From contig CANHDY010000001.1 of NCBI GenBank assembly GCA_947459535.1, forward strand, positions 4,653 to 68,652: a DNA stretch of 64,000 bases. The letters are read 5' to 3'. The DNA comes from Rickettsiales bacterium. GTDB lineage: Bacteria > Pseudomonadota > Alphaproteobacteria > Rickettsiales > SXRF01. Position numbers and translations under genes: made by a program. Of this stretch, positions 10,903 through 46,667 are shown piece by piece; within the stretch, counting starts at the first letter, position 1; every line of letters begins with the position of its first letter. The notes below the pieces were generated by a model, which searched no databases, was not told the DNA's origin, and worked only from the letters and a program-made list of their open reading frames with translations.

Positions 10903-12055
10903 AATTCTTGCGGCAACTCTTAAGGTGCTGGGCGAAAGCCCGCGCCCCCATGCGCTGCATGAGCCACTCTTTGCCGGCAATGAAAAAGCCTATGTTGCGT
11001 CCTGTATTGATGAAGGTTGGGTATCATCGGTTGGCAGCTTTGTGGATCGCTTCGAGCGCGAACTGGCGGCAGCCTGCGGCGCGACCCATGCGGTAGTGAT
11101 GGTCAATGGCACCTGCGCGCTGCAGGTGGCGCTGCATCACTGCGGTGTGGCGCCGGGCGATGAGGTGCTCATGCCATCGCTCACCTTTGTGGCCACAGCC
11201 AATGCCGCAAGCCATCTTGGCGCAGTGCCGCACTTTGTGGAGGTGGAGGAAACATCGCTCGGTATTTGCCCAGAAGCGCTGCGGCGCCATCTTGCGCGCG
11301 TTGCCACCACTCAGGCCGGCACCACCATCAACCGCCTCACCGGCCGCCCGCTTCGGGCGCTGATTCCGGTAGATGTGTTTGGTCATCCCTGCCAGCTGGC
11401 AGCGCTGAGACAGGTTGCCGAGGAGTTTTCACTGGCACTGATTGAGGATGCGACCGAAGCGCTGGGCAGCCAGCGTGCGGGCACGCCGGTCGGCAATTCG
11501 GGCGTGGCTGTGCTCAGCTTCAACGGTAATAAAATCATCACCACTGGTGGCGGCGGCGCCATTTTGCTGGAAGATGAAGCCAGTTATCGGCGCATCAAGC
11601 ATCTCACCACCACTGCTAAACAACCGCACCGCTGGGCCTTTGATCACGATGCTGTGGCGTGGAATTACCGCCTGCCGAACCTCAATGCCGCGCTGGGTGT
11701 CGCGCAGCTTGAGCAGCTGCCGCGTTTTGTTGCCGCCAAGCGTTTGCTTGCTGAGCGCTACATTCAGCAGTTTGAAAATGTGCATGGCGTGCGTATTCTG
11801 AAAGAGCCATCAGGCACCAGCAGCAACTACTGGCTGGTGTCATTGCTGCTGGATGAAGCCTCTGGCGAAACGCGCGATGCATGCCTCGCCCAGCTGCATG
11901 ATGAGGGCATTCTCGCCCGCCCGGTCTGGACACCGCTGCACCAGCTCGCCATCTATCAGTCCTGCCCGCGCGATCAGCTCACACTCACCGAATCACTCCA
12001 CCAGCGTCTTATCAGCCTGCCCTCCAGCGCGAAATATGGATTTGCCTATGTCTAG
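10880..12055 (+). CDS. DegT/DnrJ/EryC1 aminotransferase (LegC-like)
   Basis: 'LHEPLF...YV..CI..GWVSS', 'AVLSFNGNKIITTGGGG'. Start set at the internal ATG at 10880. Confidence 0.85.
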   Translation: MSRATPSEILAATLKVLGESPRPHALHEPLFAGNEKAYVASCIDEGWVSSVGSFVDRFERELAAACGATHAVVMVNGTCALQVALHHCGVAPGDEVLMPSLTFVATANAASHLGAVPHFVEVEETSLGICPEALRRHLARVATTQAGTTINRLTGRPLRALIPVDVFGHPCQLAALRQVAEEFSLALIEDATEALGSQRAGTPVGNSGVAVLSFNGNKIITTGGGGAILLEDEASYRRIKHLTTTAKQPHRWAFDHDAVAWNYRLPNLNAALGVAQLEQLPRFVAAKRLLAERYIQQFENVHGVRILKEPSGTSSNYWLVSLLLDEASGETRDACLAQLHDEGILARPVWTPLHQLAIYQSCPRDQLTLTESLHQRLISLPSSAKYGFAYV

Positions 12056-13199
12056 AAAAATAGCCGTCATCACCGCCACCCGCGCCGAATATGGCCTGCT
12101 ACGCTGGACGATGCGTGAAATTCTTGAGCGCGGCGGCGAGCTTCAGCTGATTGCGACCGGCACTCACTTAAGCGCGGCGCATGGCATGACCCTGCGCGAT
12201 ATTGAGGCCGATGGATTTGATGTCACCGCCTCCATCGATATGAAGCAATCCGGCGACCGGCCGAAAGATATCATCCGCGCCATGGTGAGGCTCAGCCAGG
12301 AGCTGGCAAGCCTGCTGCCGAAACTCTCCCCAGACCTGCTGGTCATTCTCGGCGATCGCTATGAAATGCTGGCTGCCGCCAGCAGCGCGCTGATGTTTAA
12401 CCTGCCCATCGCCCATATTCATGGCGGTGAAGTCACGGAAGGAGCCATGGATGAATCCATCCGCCACGCCATCACCAAGCTGAGCTACTGGCATTTTGCC
12501 ACCGCCGAACCTTACGCACGCAGAATCATGCAACTTGGCGAAGAGGCTGGCCGCGTTTTTATTGCTGGTGCGCCGGGTATTGATAACATTTACCGCCTGC
12601 CGCTGCTGCCCCGCGAGGCGCTGGCAGAGGATTTAAAACTGGCACTGAACTCGCCGCTGATACTCCTTACCTACCATCCGGAGACCCTTGCTGCGGTATC
12701 GCCGCTTATGCAGCTGGAAGAGGTACTGGCCGCCCTTGAAAGCAGGCCGGATGCCACGCTGATCATCACCGGCGCGAATGCCGATAGCGGCGGCGCGGCC
12801 ATCAATGATCGCCTGCGCGCCTTCGCTGAGCAGCGCCCACAAACGGTTTTTTCGCCGTCGCTCGGTTCACTTCGCTATTTAAGCGCCATCCGCGCGGCGG
12901 ATGTGGTGCTGGGCAATTCCTCCAGCGGCATGATCGAGGCGCCGGTGCTTGCCACCCCCACGGTCAATATCGGCGATCGCCAGAAGGGTCGCCTGCGTGC
13001 CCCCAGTGTCATCGACTCCGCGTGCGAGCGCAGCGCCATCTCCGCAGCGCTGGCGCAGGCGTTGCTGCCAGCATTCAAACAGGGGCTTGAGCCATGGCAG
13101 GCGCTGGGCAGACCCGGGCAGGTCGCGCCGATGATTGCAGAAAAACTGCTCTCGCTTGAGATACCAGCGCGTCCGGTTAAGCCATTTGTTGATTTTTAG
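12048..13199 (+). CDS. neuC: UDP-N-acetylglucosamine 2-epimerase (hydrolysing), NeuC/LegG-like
   Basis: 'KIAVITATRAEYGLL' and 'HIHGGE'. Start is ATG 12048; ATG 12036 is an alternative. Confidence 0.85.
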   Translation: MSRKIAVITATRAEYGLLRWTMREILERGGELQLIATGTHLSAAHGMTLRDIEADGFDVTASIDMKQSGDRPKDIIRAMVRLSQELASLLPKLSPDLLVILGDRYEMLAAASSALMFNLPIAHIHGGEVTEGAMDESIRHAITKLSYWHFATAEPYARRIMQLGEEAGRVFIAGAPGIDNIYRLPLLPREALAEDLKLALNSPLILLTYHPETLAAVSPLMQLEEVLAALESRPDATLIITGANADSGGAAINDRLRAFAEQRPQTVFSPSLGSLRYLSAIRAADVVLGNSSSGMIEAPVLATPTVNIGDRQKGRLRAPSVIDSACERSAISAALAQALLPAFKQGLEPWQALGRPGQVAPMIAEKLLSLEIPARPVKPFVDF

Positions 13200-15770: not shown

Positions 15771-15879
15771 ATCCATCCAGAAATGTCAGCAGACATTTCT
15801 GGGACGCAAAAGGTCTACTGACCTTTTGCTATTCTGGATCCCGGATAAATTTTTTTACTAAAAAAATTTCCGGGATGAC
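15771..15879. repeat. composite GTCAT/ATCCAG...CTGGAT/ATGAC palindromic element (MITE-like) with two internal GTC..GAC hairpins
   Basis: atccatccag + hairpins at 15777-15802 and 15806-15829 + ctggatcccggataaattttttt..aaaaaaatttccgggatgac. Confidence 0.75.
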
Positions 15880-17659: not shown

Positions 17660-17689
17660 CTGGATTACTTCGCTTACGCTCGTAATGAC
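17660..17689. repeat. half element CTGGAT...AATGAC
   Basis: ctggattacttcgcttacgctcgtaatgac. Confidence 0.6.
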
Positions 17690-18924
17690 GATAGTATTTC
17701 CTTCACCAGCCTCTCAGCCACTTGGGTTTTACTCTTCTTCGGCCATGGGTGCTGGCCATCTTTGGAAATGAATATCACCCGATTGTCATCATCACCAAAC
17801 ACTTTACCGCCGGAAACATCGTTGGCAAGCACCCAATCAGCGCCCTTGGCGTGATATTTCTTAGCCGCATGGCTTGCAAGCTTCTCGGTTTCTGCCGCAA
17901 AACCAACCACCAGGCGCGGGCGCTTCGTTTTGTGCTGCGCCACGCTTTTTAAAATATCCGGGTTTTCCTCAAGCTCCAGCGCCGGTTTTTTCCCCGTCTG
18001 TTTTTTGATTTTCTGCGCGGCTGGTTTCACATGCCAGTCCCCCACTGCGGCGGCAAACACCGCCACATCCACCGGAAGCAGCCTGTGCACCGCCTCATGC
18101 ATCTCGCGCGCTGTGGTCACATGCACGACCGAAACACCCGCAGGATCAGCAAGCTGCGTCGGCCCCGAAACCAGCGTCACCTTCACACCCACCTTGGCAA
18201 GCGCCGCCGCAATCGCATGCCCCTGCTTGCCGCTGGAGCGATTGGCAATATAGCGCACCGGATCAATCGGTTCATGCGTCGGGCCAGAGGTGACGAGAGC
18301 GGTGATACTCTTTGACCCCCTCTCCCTTTCAGGGAGAGGGTTGGGGTGAGGGTTATGTCTTTTACCCCCCTCACCCTGCCCTCTCCCCGCAGGGGAGAGG
18401 GTTCTAAGCACCACTTCCACAATCTCCTGCGGCTCGGCCATACGCCCGGGGCCTTCTTCGCCGCAGGCCAGCATGCCGACACCCGGCTCGATCACTTCCG
18501 CGCCGTCAGCCTTGAGCTGCGCCACGTTGCGCTGCGTGGCGGGGTGGCGCCACATCTGCGTGTTCATCGCTGGTGCTACGAGCAGTTTTTTATTGTTAGC
18601 AAGCAGCGTGGCGGTTGCCATATCATCGGCAATCCCATGCACCATCTTGGCGATAATATCGGCAGTTGCAGGTGCCACGAGCAGCAAATCCGTTTCGCGT
18701 GAGAAACGAATATGCCACATGTCCTTCTTTTCCTTGGGCGAGAATAAATCCGTGGAAACGGGATTGCCCGAAAGCTTTTCCAGTTCTTTCACATTCACAA
18801 ATTCGCTGCCGCCGCGCGTGACAATGCAGTGCACACCAATCTTCTTTTGACGCAGCAGGCTAATAAGCGCCGGCGCCTTAATCGCCGCAATCGAACCGCT
18901 GATGATGAGGGTAATGGAGGGCAT
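17674..18924 (-). CDS. coaBC: bifunctional phosphopantothenoylcysteine decarboxylase/synthetase
   Basis: 'ISGSIAAIK', 'PAMN..M', 'VTSGPTHEPIDPVRYIANRSSGKQG'. Start set at 'MPSITLII'; upstream codons are a translated repeat. Confidence 0.9.
   Translation of the reverse strand: MPSITLIISGSIAAIKAPALISLLRQKKIGVHCIVTRGGSEFVNVKELEKLSGNPVSTDLFSPKEKKDMWHIRFSRETDLLLVAPATADIIAKMVHGIADDMATATLLANNKKLLVAPAMNTQMWRHPATQRNVAQLKADGAEVIEPGVGMLACGEEGPGRMAEPQEIVEVVLRTLSPAGRGQGEGGKRHNPHPNPLPERERGSKSITALVTSGPTHEPIDPVRYIANRSSGKQGHAIAAALAKVGVKVTLVSGPTQLADPAGVSVVHVTTAREMHEAVHRLLPVDVAVFAAAVGDWHVKPAAQKIKKQTGKKPALELEENPDILKSVAQHKTKRPRLVVGFAAETEKLASHAAKKYHAKGADWVLANDVSGGKVFGDDDNRVIFISKDGQHPWPKKSKTQVAERLVKEILSSLRA
18316..18403. 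repeat. G/C-rich tripartite palindromic element, family A (CCCTCTCCC..GGGAGAGGG / GGGGTGAGGG..CCCTCACCC / CCCTCTCCCC..GGGGAGAGGG)
   Basis: Three consecutive hairpins read directly. Lies inside coaBC. Confidence 0.85.
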
Positions 18925-18942
18925 AGCTACCACATTTAAAGT

Positions 18943-18970
18943 GTCATCCCGAGCTTGTCGAGGGATCTCA
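18943..18970. repeat. GTCATCCCGAGC-type half element
   Basis: gtcatcccgagcttgtcgagggatctca. Gives the spurious 'EIPRQARDDT' N-terminal extension of the coaBC ORF. Confidence 0.6.
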
Positions 18971-19009
18971 AGATCTTTCGACTTCCCCCGCAATAAATGC
19001 CGGGTTCGC

Positions 19010-21763
19010 TCAAGATGACAACTGTTTTAGTTTATACAGTATCTCCAGCGCTTCTTTTGGCGAGAGTGTATCGGGGTTGATGCTTTCTAACTCTGCCAAA
19101 ACCGTCTCTCCTTTTGCGGGAGGTGGCTGATTGGCGGGGGTAGAAGAATAGCTAAAGAGCGGCAAGCTCGCCGGCACCTCCTGCGAATGTTCTGCCTCAA
19201 GCTGGCGCAGAATCTCGCTGGCGCGGCTTATCACCGGCTCAGGCAGCCCCGCCAGCTTCGCCACGTGAATACCGTAGGAACGATCCGCCGTGCCGCTCGT
19301 CACCTCATGCAGAAACACCAGCTCGCCCTTCCATTCCTTCACTTTCATCGTGTAGCAGGCAAGCGCTGGCAGCGTGCCCGTCAGCTGGGTCAGCTCGTGG
19401 TAGTGGGTGGCAAAAAGTGCGCGCGCTTTGGTCACATGGTGCAGATGCTCCACCACCGCCCACGCGATGGAAAGACCATCAAACGTCGCGGTGCCACGCC
19501 CAATTTCATCAAGGATAATCAGCGAGCGCGAGGTGGCCTGATTCAAAATGGTGGCGGTTTCCACCATCTCCACCATGAAGGTGGATTGCCCGCGCGCCAA
19601 ATCATCCGCCGCGCCCACGCGTGAAAACAGCTTATCCACGATGCCAACACGCGCCGATTCCGCCGGCACAAAACCGCCCATCTGCGCCATGATGGCGATC
19701 AACGCATTCTGGCGCAGGAAGGTTGATTTACCGGCCATGTTCGGGCCGGTGAGCAACCACAAATGCTTATCGGGTGCAAGGCTGGTATCATTGCCGATGA
19801 AAGGTTGCTGGCTGGTTTTGGCCAGCGCCGCCTCCACCACCGGATGACGCCCCTTTCGAATCTCAAACTCCAGCGATCCGTTGATTTCCGGGCGAACATA
19901 ACGGCGTTTGGCGGCAAGCTCAGCCAACGCCGCCACCACATCAAGATGCGCCAGCGCACGTGCGGACGCCACCACGCGCGGCGCGGCGTCAAGCACCTCA
20001 GCGACCAGCTCCGCAAAAATCTCAAGCTCCAGTTTCAGCGCCTTATCACCCGCTTCGCTGATGCTGCGCTCCAGCTCAGAAAGCTCCACGGTGGTGTAGC
20101 GCAGATTATTCGCCAGCGTCTGGCGGTGGATAAAATCCTGCGTCACCTTACTCTGGTGCGCCTGCGTAATTTCAATGTAATAACCAAGAATGTTGTTATA
20201 GCGAATCTTCAGTGTATTGATGCCGGTGGCGTCAATGTAGCGCTGCTGCAGCGCCGCGATGCGCCGCGCGCCCTCATGCTTCAGCGAGCGCAGCTCGTCG
20301 AGCGCCGCATGGTAGCCGCTGGCGATAAAATCACCGTCGCGCGCAAACAGCCCCGCCTCCGGTTTGATCGCGGACTTAAGCCGCTGGATGAGTGTTTCAT
20401 GGCCGCCCAGCTCGCCGCGCTTCTGCGCCAGCTCCTCTGGTAGTGCTGACGAGTCCTGCAGCTCCAGTGCCATGCGAATCTGCTGCGCGGCGTCCAGCGC
20501 CTGAGCAATGGAGAGTAAATCCCTTGGCCCACCGCGCGCAAGCGACAGCCGTGCCAGTGCCCGCTCCATATCTGGCGCATTCTTGAGCTGTTCGCGCACG
20601 GCGCTGCGAAGGCTGGCTTCATCTTTAAACAGCATCACCTGCTCCTGCCGGCGAAGAATCGCCTGTGGGTCGGTCAGCGGCGCGCATAGCCAGCTGGCCA
20701 GCAGCCTTGCGCCGCTGGCGGTGACGGTCTCATCCATTACCCAAAACAGGCTACCCCGGCGCTCGGCGGATAAGGTCTGCATCAGCTCAAGGTTGCGCAG
20801 GCTCGCCGCATCAATCTGCATGTGGCTGGCTGGCAGCTGACGCGTGGGTGCATCCAGACGCGGCATCGCGGTTTTCTGCGTGAGGCGCACATAATCCAGC
20901 AGCACGCCACACGCCGCCAGCTCGCCCGGCATGAAATCCCCAAACACACTCAGCGTCGCCACGGCGTAATACTCGGTCATGATGCGCGTAGCGCGCGCCG
21001 GATCAAACAGATGGGCGGGCAGCCGCGTCAGCTGGCTCTGCCACATCGGCTGCCATGCACTTTGCTCGCCGTCTGCCAGCAGAATCTCGCGCGGGGCAAT
21101 GCGCGAAAGTTCGGCGGCGATCTGCTCCGGCGCCACCATCGCCACACGAAACTCACCGGTGGTGATGTCCAGCCAGGCAAGGCTTGCCGACGCCTGCCCG
21201 CGAGCTGGCGCCACCAACGCGCATAAATACTGCGAACTGCGGCCATCAAGCAGCGTGTCTTCAGTAATCGTTCCCGGCGTCACAATACGCACCACATCGC
21301 GCGCCACCACTGCTTTGTAACCGCGTTTTTTGGCTTCTTCCGGTGTTTCCAGCTGCTCGGCAATGGCCACGCGCAGCCCGGCGCGGATCAGCTTTTCAAG
21401 GTAAGTATCATAGGCATGCACCGGCACGCCGCACATCGGAATATCCTCGCCGGCATGCTTGCCACGCTTGGTCAGCGCAATATCCAGTACCTGCGACGCC
21501 ACCGCTGCATCCTCAAAAAACAGCTCGTAAAAATCGCCCATGCGATAAAACAGCAGACAGTCCGGATGCGCCGCCTTCAGCGCCAGATATTGCGCCATGG
21601 CGGGCGTCGTTTTTTCCTCCCCCCCTTGAGGGAGGAGGTTAGGAGGGGGGGTGACAACTGTTCTGCCTGAGCGTATGTCACCCCCCACCCCGCCCTCCCC
21701 CTCAAGGGGGGAGGGAGAAATATCTTCCAAAACAACTGCTTGTTTAGCCATACCCATTGTCAC
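19010..21763 (-). CDS. mutS: DNA mismatch repair protein MutS
   Basis: 'TPAMAQYL..K....[14 protein letters not shown]', 'GPNMAGKST', 'DEIGRGT'. The N-terminus contains a repeat element, so the start is uncertain. Confidence 0.92.
21616..21716. repeat. tripartite palindromic element, family B (C7/G7 type)
   Basis: cctcccccccttgagggaggagg / gggggggtgaca..tgtcacccccc / ccctccccctcaagggggggaggg. Lies inside the mutS 5' region. Confidence 0.85.
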
Positions 21764-24914: not shown

Positions 24915-24946
24915 CCCTCTGCCTTTGGGAGAGGGTTAGGGGTGAG
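24915..24946. repeat. family A element, partial
   Basis: ccctctgcctttgggagagggttaggggtgag, located between the maeB and relE stop codons. Confidence 0.7.
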
Positions 24947-24951
24947 CGCTT

Positions 24952-25605: not shown

Positions 25606-25689
25606 CCCCTCTCCCCTCCGAGGAGAGGGTTAGGGTGAGGGGGACAGCGGTTTAGGCCTCTCCCTTCCAGGGAGAGGGTTAGCGGAGGG
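25606..25689. repeat. two family A elements in tandem
   Basis: cccctctcccctccgaggagagggttagggtgaggggg and cctctcccttccagggagagggttagcggaggg. Confidence 0.8.
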
Positions 25690-25698
25690 TTATCTCAA

Positions 25699-30718: not shown

Positions 30719-30784
30719 AATGACAGTATGGTGACACTTATAAGACAGGATAATGACAGTATGGTGACACTTATAAGACAGGAT
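30719..30784. repeat. perfect 2 x 33-bp tandem repeat
   Basis: aatgacagtatggtgacacttataagacaggat occurs twice. Lies in the AT-rich region upstream of the 463-aa orphan. Confidence 0.95.
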
Positions 30785-35381: not shown

Positions 35382-35470
35382 GTCATGCCCGTGAAAACGG
35401 GCATCCAGCGCGCCGCGTCTGCGGCGAAATGGTATTAAGTAGACTGGATTCCCGCTTTCGCGGGAATGAC
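35382..35470. repeat. composite element: GTCATGCCCGTGAAAACGGGCATCCAG - spacer hairpin - CTGGATTCCCGCTTTCGCGGGAATGAC
   Basis: Read directly. The spacer holds the hairpin cgccgc-gtct-gcggcg. Confidence 0.8.
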
Positions 35471-35577
35471 GAAATAAATAACCCTCTCAGAGCACCCAGA
35501 AAACGCTTTTCATTTACATTCCATGCTTTTTCAGTATAGTATCAATCTATTGCGCACAAAACGGGCGATAGACTAGC

Positions 35578-36022: not shown

Positions 36023-36850
36023 ATGCTCACCTTCCCCAATATCGACCCCATCGCGCTTGAGCTAGGACCGCTTGCCATTCGCTGGTATTCGCTGGCTTAT
36101 ATTGCAGGGATATTGCTGGGCTGGTGGATTATCGTGCGCGAGCTGGCCGCCCGCCCGCTGGAAAACTTAAATAAAAAAGCCATCGATGACATGATCGTCT
36201 GGGCGATTATCGGCATCATGCTAGGCGGCAGGCTGGGCTACTGCCTGTTTTATAAACCATCTTACTACCTCGAAAATCCGCTGGAAATCCTTCAGCTCTG
36301 GCAGGGCGGCATGTCGTTCCATGGCGGCTTTGCCGGCTTTGTGCTCGCTTTTTATCTTTTCTGCCGCAAATACAACGTACGCTTCCTCGCGCTGATGGAT
36401 CTGATGGCCTGCGTCGCGCCGATTGGCATCGGGCTTGGCCGCCTCGCCAACTTCATCAATGGTGAACTTTATGGCCGCGTTACCGATTCACCGCTCGGCA
36501 TGATCTTCCCACACAGTGACGGCCAGCCGCGCCACCCCAGCCAGCTTTATGAGGCTTTTTCCGAAGGGCTGATTTTATTCATGATCATGATGTGCTTGCT
36601 GAAATTGTCCACACTCCGCGACCGCGCGGGAGCCTTGTCCGGCCTGTTTTGTATCGGTTACGGAACTGCCCGCATTATTTGTGAGTTTTTCCGCGAGCCG
36701 GATGCTTATCTGGGTTTCCTCTTTGCCGGTGCCACCATGGGGCAGCTGCTGAGTCTGCCGATGATTTTCATCGGTATATATCTGATATGGAAATCATCCC
36801 CCTCACCCGCCGCTTCGCGTCCTCCCTCTCCCCGTCGGGGAGAGGGTTAG
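36023..36850 (+). CDS. lgt: prolipoprotein diacylglyceryl transferase
   Basis: 'IRWYSLAYI' and 'GGMSFHGG'. The last ~17 codons and the stop codon lie inside a palindromic element. Confidence 0.9.
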   Translation: MLTFPNIDPIALELGPLAIRWYSLAYIAGILLGWWIIVRELAARPLENLNKKAIDDMIVWAIIGIMLGGRLGYCLFYKPSYYLENPLEILQLWQGGMSFHGGFAGFVLAFYLFCRKYNVRFLALMDLMACVAPIGIGLGRLANFINGELYGRVTDSPLGMIFPHSDGQPRHPSQLYEAFSEGLILFMIMMCLLKLSTLRDRAGALSGLFCIGYGTARIICEFFREPDAYLGFLFAGATMGQLLSLPMIFIGIYLIWKSSPSPAASRPPSPRRGEG

Positions 36851-36860
36851 GGTGAGGGGG
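36798..36860. repeat. family A element (nested hairpins)
   Basis: cccccctcaccc...ccctctccccgtcggggagagggttagggtgaggggg, spanning the lgt 3' end. Confidence 0.85.
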
Positions 36861-36865
36861 TAAAT

Positions 36866-37942
36866 ATGAACGATTTACTTTCCATCATCAAGGAACGCAT
36901 CGCTGAAAACGGGCCGATTCCGGTTTCGGAATATATGAGCCTGTGCCTTGCCCATCCTGAGCATGGCTATTACATGAAACGCGACCCGCTGGGCAAGGAT
37001 GGCGATTTTATTACGTCACCGGAAATCTCTCAGGTTTTTGGGGAATTGCTGGGTCTTTGGATCGCAAACCAGTGGGAAAAGCAAGGAAAGCCAAACGCCA
37101 CCCTGCTTGAAATGGGCCCCGGGCGCGGCACACTGATGAATGACGCCCTGCGCGCCACTAAAAAAATTAAGGGATTGCATGATGCGGTCTCGGTTCGTCT
37201 GCTGGAAATCAGCCCGGCGCTGAAGCAAAAACAATGGCAGCTGCTGGCGGGCAAGCACCATGATCTCGGCTGGCTGGAATCACTCGATTCACTGCCGCTA
37301 GAGCCCCTTTTTGTGGTGGCCAATGAGTTTTTTGACGCCCTGCCAATCAGGCAGTTTGTATGGCAAAATGAGAAGTGGCATGAGCGTTATGTTGGAATGG
37401 ACGGCGATCAACTTAAGTTCGTCATCGCGAGTGAGCGAAGCGAGCGTGGCGATCCAGACTGGATTGCTTCACCTTCGGCTCGCAATGACGGTGAGATTAA
37501 AGAAATTTGTGAACCAGCAACTGAAATCATTTCAAAGATCTCAAGCCATATTAAAACCTATGGCGGCGCGGCGCTCATCATTGATTACGGCTACAATGAA
37601 GGCAACGGCGACACGCTCCAGGCCATGCGTCGCCACCAGTATTTTGAAATATTTTCAAAGCCCGGTAGCGCCGACATCACCGCCCATGTCGATTTCGCCG
37701 CCCTCAAAGAAGCGGCAGAAAAAGCAGGCGCCAAAGTATTTGGCGCGACGCCGCAAGGGCGTTTCCTGATGAAGATCGGCGCCGGCCAGCGCACCCAGAA
37801 ACTCTGCGGAAGCGCCTCGCAGGAACAAAGCAGAGAGCTGATCTCGGGTCTCGATCGCCTCGCTTCCCCGGAAAAAATGGGCGAACTATTCAAAGTGCTG
37901 GCGATATTGCCGCCAGATGCCATGCATGCGGAGGGTTTTTAA
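36866..37942 (+). CDS. MidA/NDUFAF7-family SAM-dependent methyltransferase (DUF185)
   Basis: 'DFITSPEISQVFGEL', 'EMGPGRGTLM'. Carries a 69-bp palindromic element in frame. Confidence 0.8.
   Translation: MNDLLSIIKERIAENGPIPVSEYMSLCLAHPEHGYYMKRDPLGKDGDFITSPEISQVFGELLGLWIANQWEKQGKPNATLLEMGPGRGTLMNDALRATKKIKGLHDAVSVRLLEISPALKQKQWQLLAGKHHDLGWLESLDSLPLEPLFVVANEFFDALPIRQFVWQNEKWHERYVGMDGDQLKFVIASERSERGDPDWIASPSARNDGEIKEICEPATEIISKISSHIKTYGGAALIIDYGYNEGNGDTLQAMRRHQYFEIFSKPGSADITAHVDFAALKEAAEKAGAKVFGATPQGRFLMKIGAGQRTQKLCGSASQEQSRELISGLDRLASPEKMGELFKVLAILPPDAMHAEGF
37421..37489. repeat. compact composite element GTCATCGCGAG...ATCCAGaCTGGAT...CTCGCAATGAC
   Basis: 69 bp. Lies inside the midA-like CDS. 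Confidence 0.85.
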
Positions 37943-38781
37943 TGCTCTTTCCCCTCACCTCTTCCAATCTCGACTTACCACACATCCGCCACGGCTTTTT
38001 CAGCCGCAGTGGCGGCGTGAGTCAGGGTATCTACGCATCGCTGAACTGCGGCCCCGGCTCCGGCGATAATCTGGAACATGTGGGCAAAAACCGCCAGCGC
38101 GTAAGCAGCCACATGGGTGCACCGCTCATCACCTGCCATCAGGTTCACAGCAGCGAGGTGGTGACGGTTGAGATGCCATGGCAGCAAGGGCAGGCACCGC
38201 AGGCCGATGCGATGGTAACGAATCAGCCCGGCATCGCGCTGGGTATCCTGACGGCGGATTGCCTGCCGGTACTTTTTGCTGATCGCAGCCAGCGCATCAT
38301 CGGCGCGGCGCATGCCGGCTGGAAGGGTGCCTTCACCGGCGTACTGGAAAACACCATTGCCGCCATGAAAGCCCTTGGCGCCAGCGACATTGCCTGCGCC
38401 ATTGGCCCCGCCATTTCGCAGCCCTCTTATGAAGTCGGCCCGGAATTTTATGAGCGTTTCACGAAAATATACTCCCCCAGCTTGCGGGGGGAGATAGAGG
38501 GGGGTGATCATGCAACACTGCAAACTCACCCCCCCTACCCCCCCGCAAGCGGGGGGGTAATAAACAATGACCAATTCTTCATCCCCTCTTCCCGCGAAGG
38601 CCATCACCTCTTCGACCTCAAGGGCTATGCGCTGGCGCGGCTCAAAAATGCGGGCGTTGAGGCGGAACTTCTTGACCGCGATACCTGTTTTGAAGATGAT
38701 AGCTTCTTCAGCTTCCGCCGCGCCACCTTAATCGGCGAACGTGGCTATGGCAGGCAGGTTTCGGTAATATCATTAGTATAG
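37942..38781 (+). CDS. pgeF: peptidoglycan editing factor PgeF (YfiH/laccase-domain family)
   Basis: 'QVHSSEVV', 'ADAMVT', 'TADCLPV', 'HAGWKG'. Carries an ~87-bp element in frame. Confidence 0.85.
   Translation: MLFPLTSSNLDLPHIRHGFFSRSGGVSQGIYASLNCGPGSGDNLEHVGKNRQRVSSHMGAPLITCHQVHSSEVVTVEMPWQQGQAPQADAMVTNQPGIALGILTADCLPVLFADRSQRIIGAAHAGWKGAFTGVLENTIAAMKALGASDIACAIGPAISQPSYEVGPEFYERFTKIYSPSLRGEIEGGDHATLQTHPPYPPASGGVINNDQFFIPSSREGHHLFDLKGYALARLKNAGVEAELLDRDTCFEDDSFFSFRRATLIGERGYGRQVSVISLV
38472..38558. repeat. tripartite palindromic element, family B
   Basis: ctcccccagcttgcggggggag / ggggggtga..tcacccccc / acccccccgcaagcgggggggt. Lies inside pgeF. Confidence 0.85.
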
Positions 38782-38783
38782 CT

Positions 38784-38897
38784 GTCATCCCCGCGAAAGC
38801 GGAGATCCAGTTATAAACTTGACGAAAAATGTCTACTGACATTTTTCTTCTCTGGATCCCGGATAAATTTTTCTACTGAAAAATTTTCCGGGATGAC
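38784..38897. repeat. composite element with GTCTACTGAC hairpin
   Basis: gtcatccccgcgaaagcggagatccag + gaaaaatgtctactgacatttttc + ctggatcccggataaattttt..aaaattttccgggatgac. Confidence 0.85.
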
Positions 38898-40959: not shown

Positions 40960-42144
40960 TTACTCGAAAACCCTGACCTGCTTCGGTCTGACATACAGCT
41001 TATCATGCTTGCTAATCGCCAGCTGGTCAATAATCGCTTTGGGCACCTCCGCCTGAATGATGCTGCCATTGCTGCGCTGCATCTCCAGCTTGGCAAGCGA
41101 GCCGGCGGGGTTGATGTGAATCACACTCGCCGGAATATATTCATGATCGCCTTCCGGCTCCTTAGTCACAAACATCTCGTGCGGGCGCGCATACATTTTC
41201 ACCGGCACCCCGCGCTCTTTGAGCGCCGCGCGCACCTTGCCACGCGCGCTGGCTTTTTTGGTGATCTCCGGCATCGGCAGCAGCATATCCGGCACGATTT
41301 TTCGTAGTGACCCCAGCCAGCCTTCCTGCTTTGCCACCTGCATCGCGGCTGGCTTTGCTTCCCATAAATCATCTTCGGCGAGGTGAGTATTGCCCGCAGC
41401 ATCACGCCAGCCGAGAAACTCGTTATAATTGCCAAGAAAATCATACACAAAACCATTGGCGGGGGTGTGATACACCTCATCCGGCGTGCCGGTCTGCTCG
41501 ATTTTTCCTGCGTTCATTACCACCACACGGTCGGCCACTTCCATCGCCTCTTCCTGATCGTGCGTGACAAACAGGGTGGTGATGTGCAGCTCGTCATGCA
41601 GCCTTCTCAGCCAGCGCCGCAGCTCTTTGCGCACCTTGGCATCCAGCGCACCAAACGGCTCATCAAGCAGCAGCAGCTTCGGCTCCACGGCAAGCGCGCG
41701 TGCGAGCGCCACACGCTGGCGCTGGCCGCCGGAAAGCTGGCTGGGGTAGCGATCATAAAAATTATCAAGATGCACAAGGCGCAGCAGGTTCATCACCCGC
41801 TCGGTAATCTGCTCGTAAGGCAGGCGCTCGCGCTTTGGCCGCACACGCAGGCCAAATGCCACATTCTCAAACACCGTCATGTGGCGAAACAGCGCATAAT
41901 GCTGAAACACAAACCCGACTTTACGTTCACGCACATGCTGGTGGGTGGTGTCGATGCCATGCACCAGCACCTTGCCGCTATCCGGCATATCCAGCCCGGC
42001 GATCATGCGCAGCAGCGTGGTCTTGCCGGAACCAGAAGGCCCGAGCAGCGCCACCAGCTCGCCATCTTTCACGCTCAGGTCAACGCCAGCCAGCGCATGA
42101 AAGTCGCCAAATGATTTATGAATCTGGATTAGTTCAATGGTCAT
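40960..42144 (-). CDS. cysA: sulfate/thiosulfate ABC transporter ATP-binding protein
   Basis: Walker A 'GPSGSGKTT', signature 'LSGGQRQR', Walker B 'LLLDEP'. Downstream of cysTW. Confidence 0.9.
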
Positions 42145-43024
42145 GGTTTGCCTTTAGTTCCTTCGCATACCTAGCCTCAACTGCGTATTTTAGCAACAAA
42201 GTGAGCACGGCCAGTAAGGTCAGCAGCGACGCGACCGCAAACGCCGCTACGAAATTATATTCATTATACAGAATCTCCACATGCAGCGGCACAGTGTTCG
42301 TCTGCCCCTTGATATGGCCGGAAACGACTGACACTGCGCCAAACTCGCCCATCGCCCGTGCATTGCACAGCAGTACGCCGGAGAGCAGCGCCCATTTGAT
42401 ATTGGGCAGCGTCACGCTGATGAAGGTACGAAAGCCCGATGCGCCAAGCAGAATCGCCGCTTCCTCTTCTTCGCTGCCCTGCTCTTCCATCAGCGGAATC
42501 AGCTCACGCGCCACAAACGGAAAGGTGACAAAGATGGTGGCAATCACCAGGCCGGGCACCGCAAAAATAATCTGGATATCGTGTGCAGCGAGCCACTCGC
42601 CCAGCGCCGAATGCGCGCCAAACAGCAGCACATAAATCAGGCCGGAAATCACCGGCGAGACGGAAAACGGCAAATCAATGAAGGTGATGAGCAGGCGCTT
42701 GCCGGCAAATTCATATTTGGCAATCGCCCAGGAGGCGCAGAGGCCAAACACCACATTAAACGGCACCGCAATCGCCGCCACCAGCAACGTGAGCTCGATG
42801 GCCGACAGCGCATGGCGGTGGGCAAGCGCATCTGCGTAAGCCTCCCAGCCCTTTGCAAACGCTTCTGCAAAAACCACCGCCAGCGGCAACGCCACCAGCG
42901 CCAGCATGAAGCCAAGCGCGACAGCAATGAGCACCAACTTCACCCACCATGGCTCTCCTAAAATCTCCCTCTCCCTTTTAGGGAGAGGGTTGGGGTGAGG
43001 GTTATCAGTCCAAATGACGCTCAT
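42134..43024 (-). CDS. cysW: sulfate ABC transporter permease CysW
   Basis: Permease EAA-type region '[15 protein letters not shown]'. The first ~20 codons lie in a repeat element, so the start is uncertain. Confidence 0.85.
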
Positions 43025-43062
43025 AAAACCCCCCTCCTAACCTCTCCCCTTAAGGGGGGAGG
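42967..43062. repeat. family A-like tripartite element at the cysT/cysW junction
   Basis: ccctctcccttttagggagagggttggggtgaggg ... cctctccccttaaggggggagg. Confidence 0.85.
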
Positions 43063-43876
43063 AATATCTGGATTGTAACCAGTTAATGAGTAGCAGCAAC
43101 GCGAATGATGCAAGCAGCATCACGCAGGCGATGGCGGTGGCGCCTGCCACATCATATTGCTCCAGCTTCACAACAATCAGAAGCGGCACAATTTCCGACA
43201 CGCCGGGAATATTGCCCGCGATAAAAATCACCGAGCCATATTCGCCGAGCGCGCGGGCAAAGGCCATGGCAAAGCCGGTCGCGAGCGCCGGTAGCACCGA
43301 AGGCAATAACACGCGCGTAAAAAGCTGCCAGCGCGAAGCGCCAAGGCTCACCGCCGCCTCTTCCACCTCGCGGTCAATGTCTTTTAAGACCGGCTCCACC
43401 GTGCGCACGACAAACGGCAGCCCGACAAATACCAGCGCTGCAAAAATCCCCAGCGGCGTGAACGCCACCTTGATGCCAAGCTCATTAAGCGGAGCGCCGA
43501 GCCAGCCGCTGGGGCCATAAAGCGTCGCCAGCGCGATGCCAGCCACCGCCGTCGGCAGGGCAAAGGGTAAATCCACCATCGCATCTAACATTTTGCGACC
43601 GGCAAAACGGTAGCGCACCAGCACCCACGCGAGAATCAGCCCGAAACATGCGTTCACCGCCGCCGCCGCCAGCGCAAGGCCAAAGCTTATTTTATAAGCA
43701 TGCACCACGCGATCAGAGGTCACGGCTTTCATGATCTCCGGCCAGCTGAGCGTGGCTGTTTTCACAAACAGTCCGGCCAGCGGAATCACCACCACCAGCA
43801 GCAGCGCCGCCAGCGTAAACGCCATGGTGATGCCAAAGCCCGGCAGAATGGAAGGTTGTTTGAGTTTCATATACAT
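43037..43876 (-). CDS. cysT: sulfate ABC transporter permease CysT
   Basis: 'EEAAVSLGASRWQLF'. The last 8 codons and the stop codon lie in a repeat element. Confidence 0.85.
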   Translation of the reverse strand: MYMKLKQPSILPGFGITMAFTLAALLLVVVIPLAGLFVKTATLSWPEIMKAVTSDRVVHAYKISFGLALAAAAVNACFGLILAWVLVRYRFAGRKMLDAMVDLPFALPTAVAGIALATLYGPSGWLGAPLNELGIKVAFTPLGIFAALVFVGLPFVVRTVEPVLKDIDREVEEAAVSLGASRWQLFTRVLLPSVLPALATGFAMAFARALGEYGSVIFIAGNIPGVSEIVPLLIVVKLEQYDVAGATAIACVMLLASFALLLLINWLQSRYSSPLKGRG

Positions 43877-43878
43877 AC

Positions 43879-43956
43879 GTCATGGCGAGCGTAGCGAAGC
43901 CATCCAGTTTGGCAAGTCTGGATTGCCGCGTCGGCCTTTGGCCTCCTCGCAATGAC
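43879..43956. repeat. compact composite element GTCATGGCGAG...ATCCAG..CTGGAT...CTCGCAATGAC
   Basis: Read directly. Lies between the cysT start and the recJ stop. Confidence 0.85.
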
Positions 43957-43960
43957 GGAA

Positions 43961-45769: not shown

Positions 45770-45817
45770 GAAATATGATTATCACCTAAACATTCAAATA
45801 TCCATCCATCCAACTGA

Positions 45818-45844
45818 CAGGATCCCCGCTTTCGCGGGGATGAC
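45818..45844. repeat. half element CAGGATCCCCGCTTTCGCGGGGATGAC
   Basis: Read directly. Its ATGAC terminus supplies the first ATG of the O-methyltransferase ORF. Confidence 0.75.
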
Positions 45845-46502
45845 AAACGTGCCCCGCGAACATATCACCCCGAACATCGACTATATCCGCAAGCTCTACG
45901 CGCCGCAAGACAGCTTGCTAGCCAGCATTGCCGACACATTGAAAAAGCTGGATATCGCGTGGCAGGTAGGCCCCGAAGAGGGCAAGCTGCTGCAGCTGCT
46001 CATTCGCCTAAGCGGCGCGCGGCGCGTGGTGGAAATCGGCACGCTTGTTGGCTATTCCACGATCTGGATGGCGCGCGCCCTGCCAGATGGCGGCCAGATT
46101 TTCACCATCGGCAAAGACCCTGAGCATAATGCCATGGCGAAACATTTTTTTGACCAGTCCGATGTGGCTGAGCGCATCACCCTGCTCGAGGGCGACGCGC
46201 ACCTGATCCTGCCGGTGCTTTCCAAACAAGCGCCTTACGATATGGTGTTTATCGATGCCGATAAAATCAGCTATCCGGATTATCTGGATTGGGCAGAGGA
46301 AAATATCCGCCCCGGCGGGCTGATTGTGGCAGATAACACGCTGCTGTTTGATGCCGCTTCGCTGGATGCACCGCCGCCCGGCATTGCCCCCAAAACATGG
46401 CAGGCCATGCGCCGCTTTAACGAACGCTTAGCCGATAAAAATAAATTCTTCGGGCTGATTATTCCGACCGCGGAAGGAATGAGCGTGGCGGTGAAAATGT
46501 GA
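45840..46502 (+). CDS. class I O-methyltransferase (caffeoyl-CoA OMT/YrrM-like)
   Basis: 'VVEIGTLVGYSTIWMA', 'FIDADK'. The start ATG lies in the GGGATGAC repeat terminus, so the start is uncertain. Confidence 0.8.
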   Translation: MTNVPREHITPNIDYIRKLYAPQDSLLASIADTLKKLDIAWQVGPEEGKLLQLLIRLSGARRVVEIGTLVGYSTIWMARALPDGGQIFTIGKDPEHNAMAKHFFDQSDVAERITLLEGDAHLILPVLSKQAPYDMVFIDADKISYPDYLDWAEENIRPGGLIVADNTLLFDAASLDAPPPGIAPKTWQAMRRFNERLADKNKFFGLIIPTAEGMSVAVKM

Positions 46503-46504
46503 CT

Positions 46505-46667
46505 GTCATCCCGGAAAATTTTGCAGGAGCAAAATTTATCCGGGATCCAGTGAAGCAAAAAGTCAAAAGACTTTTTGTGTTTTACTATTTGACGACCAAA
46601 GTCTACTGACTTTGATCTTTTCTGGATCCCGTGCTCGCTACGCTACTGCTTCGCTCCACGGGATGAC
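46505..46667. repeat. composite element with two internal GTC..GAC hairpins
   Basis: gtcatcccggaaaatttt..aaaatttatccgggatccag + hairpins at 46555-46577 and 46597-46614 + ctggatcccgtgctcgc..gctccacgggatgac. Confidence 0.85.

Follow-up and report, generated by a model that had tools for sequence, protein, structure and literature searches.

In a 64,000-nucleotide stretch of DNA from a Rickettsiales bacterium (contig CANHDY010000001.1, positions 4,653 to 68,652 of the forward strand; the whole stretch is referred to below as the window), the junction between the sulfate ABC transporter permease genes cysT and cysW was found to lie in a 96-nt imperfect palindrome (43062..42967, minus strand) that spans the end of cysT and the 5' part of cysW. 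Judged by its sequence, this palindrome is not a new element but an inverted pair of units of the known BoxC repeat family (also described as PIT or TM_ECO). Our reading, to which we attach a probability of about 60%, is that the pair replaced an overlapping cysT–cysW junction and supplies, or brackets, workable signals.

The cysT gene (43037..43876, minus strand; 279 aa) was assigned from the list of open reading frames (ORFs) and from NCBIfam family TIGR02139, against which CysT scored 388.8 bits (cut-off 246.1), with the profile match stopping at Y271. The cysW gene (42134..43024, minus strand; 296 aa) was assigned from TIGR02140 (392.5 bits, cut-off 329.1; residues 28–286 matched), and in the match to a further profile, NF008620, residue 27 of CysW pairs with profile position 17. 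CysA is encoded downstream of cysW (NCBIfam naming). The palindrome between the two permease genes comprises two inverted units of about 35 nt, tails inward, around a 27-nt spacer, each unit following the plan pyrimidine block, loop of 4–5 nt, purine block, 3-nt linker and G-rich third block. The cysT-side unit (43029..43062, minus strand), a type-A-like variant with the structure CCTCCCCCC-TTAA-GGGGAGAGG-TTA-GGAGGGGGG, encodes the last eight cysT codons (SSPLKGRG) and the stop codon, the 3' end of the gene being ...INWLQSRY-SSPLKGRG-TAG in translation and ...INWLQSRYSSPLKGRG-TAG in DNA. This TAG (43037..43039, minus strand) is formed from the TA of the unit's TTA linker and the first G of its third block, and it is overlapped by a Shine-Dalgarno (SD)-like AGGAGG (43033..43038, minus strand) that lies 8 nt before the cysW ATG, the SD-like run of the junction being AGGAGGGGGG. 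The 12 nt from stop to start are GAGGGGGGTTTT, and TAG and ATG share one reading frame. The spacer (TTTTATGAGCGTCATTTGGACTGATAA; 43002..43028, minus strand) carries the ATG (43022..43024, minus strand) and codons 1–8 of cysW, and the type-B-like cysW-side unit (42967..43001, plus strand; CCCTCTCCC-TTTTA-GGGAGAGGG-TTG-GGGTGAGGG) is translated in frame on the mRNA strand, the palindrome as a whole covering about 20 cysW codons.

The original prediction, made from the letters of this DNA, had described the same parts (eight codons and the TAG of cysT, the 12-nt gap, the ATG at 43024 and about 20 codons of cysW), and each was found where it had been placed. Its view that all of them belong to one palindromic element held in so far as the palindrome is real: a search of the 64-kb window for the hairpin core CCCTCTCCC-N4-GGGAGAGGG, allowing up to three mismatches, gave 14 matches (seven sites, each on both strands) against 0.00 expected from shuffles. 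The element is, however, composed of the two inverted units and is not indivisible.

BoxC repeats were first noted in Escherichia coli in the 1990s. The family was identified here by a full-text literature search for the block sequences, which led to Holder et al. (2015, NAR 43:10126; PMC4666352), whose Table 1 holds 23 TM_ECO motifs of E. coli K-12, e.g. CCCTCTCCCTTGAGGGAGAGGGTTAGGGTGAGGGT; all three blocks of the cysW-side unit are identical to entries in that table. According to the same source, BoxC/PIT repeats occur in over 260 genomes, isolated single-stranded BoxC/TM DNA adopts an intrastrand triplex, and earlier work found BoxC to be without promoter or terminator activity and tied it to local sequence instability (PMC4666352). 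The block symmetry of the window units is compatible with such a triplex; in the cysT-side unit the arms are complementary at eight of nine positions and the third block mirrors the purine block at eight of nine. Inverted BoxC pairs occur at five E. coli loci, a type A unit always with a type B unit (PMC4666352), and in the four E. coli pairs that we inspected the tails point inward, with spacers of 29, 29, 28 and 18 nt, three of which are clearly homologous. The window repeats resemble these in having the same three blocks (CCCTCTCCC, a loop, GGGAGAGGG, a TTA or xxG linker, and GGGTGAGGG), in being dispersed and multi-copy, in forming inverted A+B pairs with tails inward and spacers shorter than 30 nt, and in occupying loci that are hypervariable among close relatives. 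They differ in that the 23 K-12 copies are 'always' intergenic (PMC4666352), whereas four of the six loci in the window overlap ORFs, in which the repeat is translated or gives stop signals; in that the spacers of the window copies are not conserved among themselves; and in that the cysT-side unit is degenerate (CCTCCCCCC / GGGGAGAGG / GGAGGGGGG). As intergenic location is a trait of the E. coli copies and is not part of the sequence definition, the units are still filed as BoxC. A scan of the whole window against Rfam at gathering thresholds gave no match.

Syntenic relatives were collected by protein searches with CysW and CysT and by exact look-ups (their loci carry the labels L081 to L093 below). 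Exact look-up of the window CysW and CysA returned no record, and an identical CysW (P0001) was found by homology search. In L084 and L090–L092 (CysW 90%, CysT 88%) cysT ends ...LQKRMLRATRG* and the cysW start, a GTG, lies 17 nt before that stop (MRRVDRIAEPWWVK); the 20-kb loci of these relatives hold no BoxC unit and nearly all of their neighbouring genes overlap. L093 (91%) likewise has a cysT/cysW overlap, of 14 nt, and no element. L081 (96%; metagenome-assembled genome (MAG) GCA_033763775.1) carries the same BoxC pair in the same place, and the relatives at 93–95% (L082/L083 and L087–L089) have at this junction an unrelated 79-nt palindromic element, here called 'family-2', whose removal in silico from the L082/L087-type junction restores an ATGA overlap and an in-frame MTQNYGAMAMSKLTTEPW. 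Because the relatives at 88–91% overlap without an element, L081 shares the pair and those at 93–95% carry another element, the BoxC pair is, on this comparison, a derived insertion in the lineage of the window genome and L081, and the cysT/cysW junction is by the same comparison one that was struck at least twice by different repeats. The overlap (14–17 nt), already a tight coupling, nevertheless predates the pair. A wider view came from a CysW search of genome contigs, in which the best match among those listed was only 81% identical: at 77 such more distant loci there were 29 ATGA overlaps, 21 other overlaps, 26 gaps of 0–30 nt and one longer gap. Since 26 of the 77 listed loci have gaps of 0–30 nt, the 12-nt gap of the window is in itself ordinary.

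In relatives cysT finishes ...LQKRMLRATRG*, ...KRMLRAAS* or ...KRMLR*, and the residues after LQ are SRY in the window versus KRML in all relatives, so that some rearrangement beyond simple insertion took place, whatever the origin of the spacer. As for the marks of a MITE (terminal inverted repeats and a target-site duplication), the pair is in itself an inverted repeat, and no direct duplication was seen beside it (...AGATATT / pair / AGATTTT...), its boundaries being uncertain by a few nucleotides. A search of metagenome contigs for AACTGGTTACAATCCAGATAT, a window-type cysT end without the unit, gave one unrelated low-GC chance match.

The window holds ten BoxC units at six loci, arranged as three inverted pairs (18318–18401, 21616–21715 and 42967–43062), one tandem pair and two singles (24915 and 36824). 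Each inverted pair joins a unit with a TTA or TTA-like linker to one with an xxG linker, tails inward, around spacers of 13, 29 and 27 nt, respectively. The cysT-side unit is most like the left-hand unit of the MutS pair (79%), and the cysW-side unit with the TTAT that follows it is 97% identical over 39 nt to the unit at 18318–18356. The latter belongs to an 84-nt pair (18318..18401, minus strand) that lies in frame inside coaBC (ORF 17674..18993, minus strand), where it splits the TIGR00521 match in two, falls in the CoaC–CoaB interdomain linker and uses the reading frame also used in CysW; the N-terminal extension of this ORF ('LEIPRQARDD') also looks repeat-derived. The pair at 21616..21715 (minus strand) lies within codons 1–52 of the MutS ORF (19010..21763, minus strand), and MutS profiles begin at residue 53; the pair may be translated or may belong to the 5' leader. 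The fourth ORF-overlapping locus, besides these two and cysT/cysW, is the end of lgt, where a unit at the junction with the Methyltransf_28 (MT28) gene (36800..36865, plus strand) contains the Lgt C-terminus (...PSPRRGEG), the TAG at 36848–36850 and GGTGAGGGGG; after 5 nt comes the ATG of the next gene (36866). Lgt and CysT end at the same TAG position of their units. The lgt/MT28 unit is also present in L087 (17640–17705), and L090 (17690–17705) has a plain ATGA overlap; the L081 lgt/MT28 junction was considered as a clean empty site and dropped, other small palindromes being present there. The remaining window copies are two tandem head-to-tail units in an intergenic position (25607..25690, plus strand) and a single degenerate unit (24915..24948, plus strand) 7 nt past the stop of a 793-aa ORF. 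Further copies were found in L081 and L087: in L087 a pair lies within recJ (641 aa versus 596–602 aa), and the MT28 gene of L081 has about 66 nt of genuine coding sequence enclosed by two inverted units whose tails point inward.

When a unit is read from hairpin to tail, one frame is open and the other two stop in the linker or third block (GGT-TAG or GGG-TGA), and the G-rich block after those stops resembles an SD (GGTGAGGGGG, or AGGAGGGGGG in the cysT-side variant). The operon would still work because two of the three unit frames stop and an SD-like G-run then follows.

The odds that the ATG-bearing spacer is element DNA rather than host DNA are roughly even. On one account, for which we would give slightly less than an even chance, two independent single-unit insertions bracket a native junction, so that the ATG and about the first seven cysW codons would be host DNA from an ancestral ATGA overlap; under it, and with the same just-below-even weight, the element would have given only the cysT tail, the stop, the SD and a 13-codon in-frame insert in cysW. 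Removal of the 34-nt cysT-side unit alone yields ...LQSRYFL*, with a TGA that overlaps the ATG as ATGA, the frame is preserved when the cysW-side unit is taken out (39 nt, its TTAT included), and removal of all 96 nt gives ...SRY*ILGEPWW, with no start codon for cysW. The two units that enclose coding sequence in the L081 MT28 gene, the single unit upstream of a kept native ATG at the lgt junction and the lack of any relation among the three window spacers point the same way, as does an in-frame GTCATTT held in common with the 5' end of L093 cysW (p = 0.17). Against this, in E. coli the pair and its conserved 28–29-nt spacer form one repeated element, and all three window pairs share the A+B, tails-inward geometry seen there; the two ends of the spacer, UUAUGAG and CUGAUAA, complement each other at six of seven positions (p ~0.011 versus shuffles); the A and T of the ATG fall within the TTAT that trails the tail in four of the ten units; an ATGA would be restored with a prior of 1 in 3, and excising 35 nt yields a natural-looking overlap as well; and the SRY that follows LQ, where every relative has KRML, requires more than simple insertion. 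Comparison of the spacer with E. coli BoxC spacers, with the other window spacers and with the native junctions of relatives gave nothing significant (p 0.11–0.99). An argument from subfamilies for two independent insertions was dropped, as the halves of every pair are only about 67–68% alike and a mixed pair is normal, in E. coli also.

It is very probable that translation of cysW begins at the ATG at 43024. This is the only in-frame ATG, GTG or TTG from the cysT TAG to E24, the first residue of a conserved CysW N-terminal motif (E24-P25-W26-W27, or E-P-x-W; 42944..42955, minus strand), and it was chosen by the gene caller of the identical CysW (P0001). When the 120 closest CysW homologues were aligned, E24 was found to be conserved in 111 of them, P25 in 97 and W27 in 99, and at least six residues stood upstream of E24 in 117 of the 120 (median 10, maximum 38). 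Between the window and L081 the codons for E24 and P25 show two synonymous changes only (GAG/GAA and CCA/CCC), and in the relatives too an SD precedes a start that lies upstream of the motif. The original prediction had allowed that the true start might be a GTG further downstream. CysW would then begin at the in-frame GTG of V28 (42941..42943, minus strand), and the cysW-side unit and spacer would be untranslated intercistronic RNA of about 93 nt. A GGAG precedes this GTG, L081 has an ATG at the same codon (M28), and an internal start was called both for the L081 orthologue (P0005, 6001–6810) and in one annotation of an element-free relative (L091, 10863–11672), giving proteins of 269 aa. However, the conserved E24, P25 and W27 are upstream of the GTG; its GGAG is 11 nt away; M, I and L occur at position 28 in homologues with normal N-termini; and a gap of more than 30 nt was present at only one of the 77 loci among the matches listed. 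The 269-aa proteins begin at residue 28, which is position 1 of TIGR02140, and because start and profile coincide in this way these annotations are best read as an artefact of profile-guided trimming, one that drops the E-P-x-W motif and looks systematic for the CysW family. We therefore judged that the GTG is not the start, and the alternative built on it is very unlikely.

A 126-nt RNA of the junction has a predicted fold of -53 kcal/mol (z = -2.7), in which the SD run (AGGAGGGGGG) is mostly paired to CCCUCACCCC (43001–42992, cysW codons 9–12; mean P(unpaired) 0.21), the anti-SD stretch being CCCTCACCCC. When a ribosome footprint was simulated on the UAG, the SD was freed in the prediction. 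The AUG had been thought to sit in the loop of a central hairpin; the fold gives it a P(unpaired) of ~0.43 and puts it instead in a weak, A/U-rich inner stem extension, beside an apical loop about 13 nt long. A scan for terminator-like sites found none in the palindrome. With its AGGAGG overlapping the TAG, the 12-nt gap has the spacing of a translationally coupled gene pair.

We propose that the pair settled in an overlapping cysT–cysW junction in the common ancestor of the window genome and L081, and that its arrival would have destroyed both the earlier end of cysT and the overlapping start that cysW had before. CysT would have gained from the unit a replacement tail of eight residues and a TAG, the AGGAGG would have been set 8 nt before the ATG in the spacer, and CysW, beginning at 43024, would read in frame through the second unit (about 13 extra residues) before it rejoins the E-P-x-W motif and the first membrane helix. 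In the mRNA the two unit tails may pair, and because this pairing would hide the SD, CysW initiation would probably be driven mainly by ribosomes that had just terminated at the cysT UAG 12 nt upstream. Coupling once given by overlap would in this way be kept by other means. Thus modelled, cysW translation is plausibly coupled to cysT termination. The original prediction had gone further and offered the element as a co-opted translational-coupling module. A stop, an AGGAGG and a start are indeed present, and the predicted fold hides the SD until a ribosome stands on the UAG; but the ancestral junction was already coupled by its overlap of 14–17 nt, the family is dispersed and occurs inside other ORFs as well, and the spacer with the ATG may itself be host DNA. 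The phrase overstates the evidence, since the pair may simply be tolerated for making good the signals that its arrival removed.

It is possible, although on balance unlikely, that tolerance is the whole explanation, i.e. that the pair is a passenger, that CysW is made by ordinary de novo initiation at AGGAGG-N8-ATG, that the structure is irrelevant or mildly harmful, and that the element persists solely through the rarity of its loss. The BoxC family is dispersed and has no known function, earlier work having found no promoter or terminator activity and pointed to local instability; ribosomes translating cysT would melt the structure anyway; and sister lineages carry different elements at the same junction. 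To this can be opposed the predicted pairing of most of the SD in free mRNA and a stop–start distance of 12 nt, which is in the range where termination–reinitiation is usual. Conservation of the pair bears on both sides. Four-fold sites differ by 19% between the window and L081, the coding DNA being 92.5% identical, and the pair shows three differences in 96 nt, all of them in the cysT-side hairpin, and lies inside a 91-nt identical run; the absence of any change in 78 nt, where neutral divergence is 19%, is not what a passenger would be expected to show, and yet such conservation is not exceptional.

Several points weigh against our reading that the pair replaced the junction and supplies or brackets its signals. 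Within 12 kb the 91-nt run ranks only 12th in length, and 78-nt windows show the same identity in 4.9% of cases. The conservation of the pair is enough to reject neutrality, but it could equally reflect coding constraint of the ordinary kind or a recombination tract. Since excision of the whole pair leaves cysW without a start, a single clean insertion does not explain the locus, which calls for a further deletion or for two insertions at separate times. The pair is carried by two genomes only, too few for covariation, and one annotation pipeline starts the L081 orthologue at the internal codon. The use of ATG 43024, the function of the SD and the dependence of coupling on structure are, moreover, steps that we infer. 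Finally, by analogy a stable helix at the stop codon could lower CysT output instead of helping CysW, because REP (repetitive extragenic palindromic) sequences within 15 nt of a stop codon stall E. coli ribosomes, at least as the work of Liang, Rudd and Deutscher (2015) is cited in PMC12306157. The likeness, on that citation, is a stable repeat-derived structure that starts less than 15 nt downstream of a stop codon; the difference, on the same citation, is that there the upstream gene is lowered, whereas here the downstream gene begins 12 nt past the stop, inside the structure.

Repeat insertions at both ends of cysT and at the 5' end of cysW might also be taken to mean that the transporter has been inactivated, with cysT, cysW or both decaying as pseudogenes. 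This is most improbable: no ORF is broken, the scores of CysT and CysW exceed the curated family cut-offs by a wide margin, and both proteins are 96–97% identical to those of L081 despite 18–21% change at four-fold sites, which indicates purifying selection.

A more ambitious generalisation is that BoxC/TM units are portable cassettes of 'stop codon + Shine-Dalgarno (+ start)' in which the tail–tail helix is a gate kept by selection, one that ties the downstream gene strictly to termination of the upstream gene. We regard this as doubtful; if it were true, units could colonise the overlapping junctions of compact genomes without killing the operon, and a long-unexplained repeat family would have a translational role. 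Structure-gated coupling at operon junctions is itself a general mechanism (atp, trp, phage MS2). It shares with the cysT–cysW junction a stop and a start only a few nucleotides apart and an SD that lies where the upstream ORF ends, within a helix to be opened by the terminating ribosome. The difference is that at cysT–cysW both helix and SD come from a repeat and that the coupling is a predicted one.

We know of no RAYT transposase linked to BoxC. REP dimers and BoxC pairs have in common that they are short GC-rich palindromes in head–head or tail–tail dimers, with REP spacers of 20–100 bp; REP termini often give TAG to flanking ORFs, some REPs are within ORFs, and their tail–tail dimers have variable spacers (Di Nocera et al., 2013; PMC3733652). 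Donation of a TAG to flanking ORFs is thus already known for this neighbouring class (PMC3733652). BoxC units differ in being without the GTAG or CGTC tag (neither was found at unit ends in an alignment of the ten units, CGTC occurring only in one loop, that of the 36824 copy) and in having a third, G-rich (triplex) arm, which is not a REP trait. Rickettsia palindromic elements (RPEs) insert in frame into protein-coding genes (review, PMC10969869), and the parallel is that in-frame palindromic repeats are tolerated in housekeeping proteins of a compact alphaproteobacterial genome, the RPE-like cases here being CoaBC, the CysW N-terminus, RecJ in L087 and MT28 in L081. RPEs are about 100–150 bp, A/T-richer and presumably unrelated in sequence; the comparison with BoxC made here is one of behaviour (in-frame insertion), and the rebuilding of operon junctions is not described for RPEs.

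The window is unusually rich in short palindromic repeats, with further families beside BoxC. A family-2 element of about 79 nt (GTCATTGCGAGG / GTCATTGCGAGGAGG...CTCGCCATGAC; 43879..43957, minus strand) fills the gap between recJ (stop 43961) and cysT (start 43876); it is unrelated to BoxC, and both ends of cysT thus carry repeat insertions. In the element-free L090 recJ and cysT have an ATGA overlap. Other family-2 copies occupy cysT/cysW in L082 and L087 and, within the window, an in-frame position in the MT28 ORF (about 37421–37489, 'VIASERSERGDPDWIASPSARNDG'). The last of these sites lies in a loop of MT28 (window about 37400–37500; L081 11500–11670) that holds a different repeat-derived peptide in each of four relatives: family-2 in the window, two BoxC units in L081, 'VIPAKAGIQ...RFRGDDG' in L087 and a decayed version in L090. 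It appears to be a recurrent hotspot of insertion or replacement. A 77-nt repeat (...GGATCCCGGATAAATTTTT...) is present at 15803–15879, 38821–38897 and 46591–46667, a GGATTCCCGCTTTCGCGGGAATGAC-type palindrome at 35442–35473 and 45816–45847, and G/C-rich palindromes (CCCCCCGCAAGCGGGGGG) at 38474–38556; at 30719–30784 a 33-nt A/T-rich unit (AATGACAGTATGGTGACACTTATAAGACAGGAT x2) is perfectly duplicated in tandem.

Beyond the window, L090–L092 (JGI metagenomes; NCBI label 'Rickettsiales bacterium' MAG) are strikingly compact, recJ/cysT, cysT/cysW, cysW/cysA, cysA/pgsA and lgt/MT28 overlapping by 4–17 nt. The window lineage has repeats at three of those junctions (recJ/cysT, cysT/cysW and lgt/MT28) and has kept the cysW/cysA overlap. 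In L087 a brnT/brnA toxin–antitoxin pair lies between cysW and cysA (11803–12334; also in L088 and L089), another sign that operon junctions permit insertions.

BoxC/PIT/TM repeats occur in hundreds of bacterial genomes and, to our knowledge, have no accepted function or mobility mechanism. The present case, tidy but fairly ordinary, is one of selfish repeats tolerated inside genes. It carries a practical warning, in that profile-guided start calling trims CysW to residue 28 and so hides a repeat-encoded N-terminus. For the organism, it means that a compact alphaproteobacterial lineage accepts BoxC inside and between essential genes, much as Rickettsia accepts RPEs, and its graded series of relatives (overlap, BoxC pair, other element) is a natural experiment on operon junctions under repeat invasion. 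For a family so far described as intergenic, the stop plus ribosome-binding-site design of the unit offers a testable reason why such repeats may be tolerated at gene junctions.

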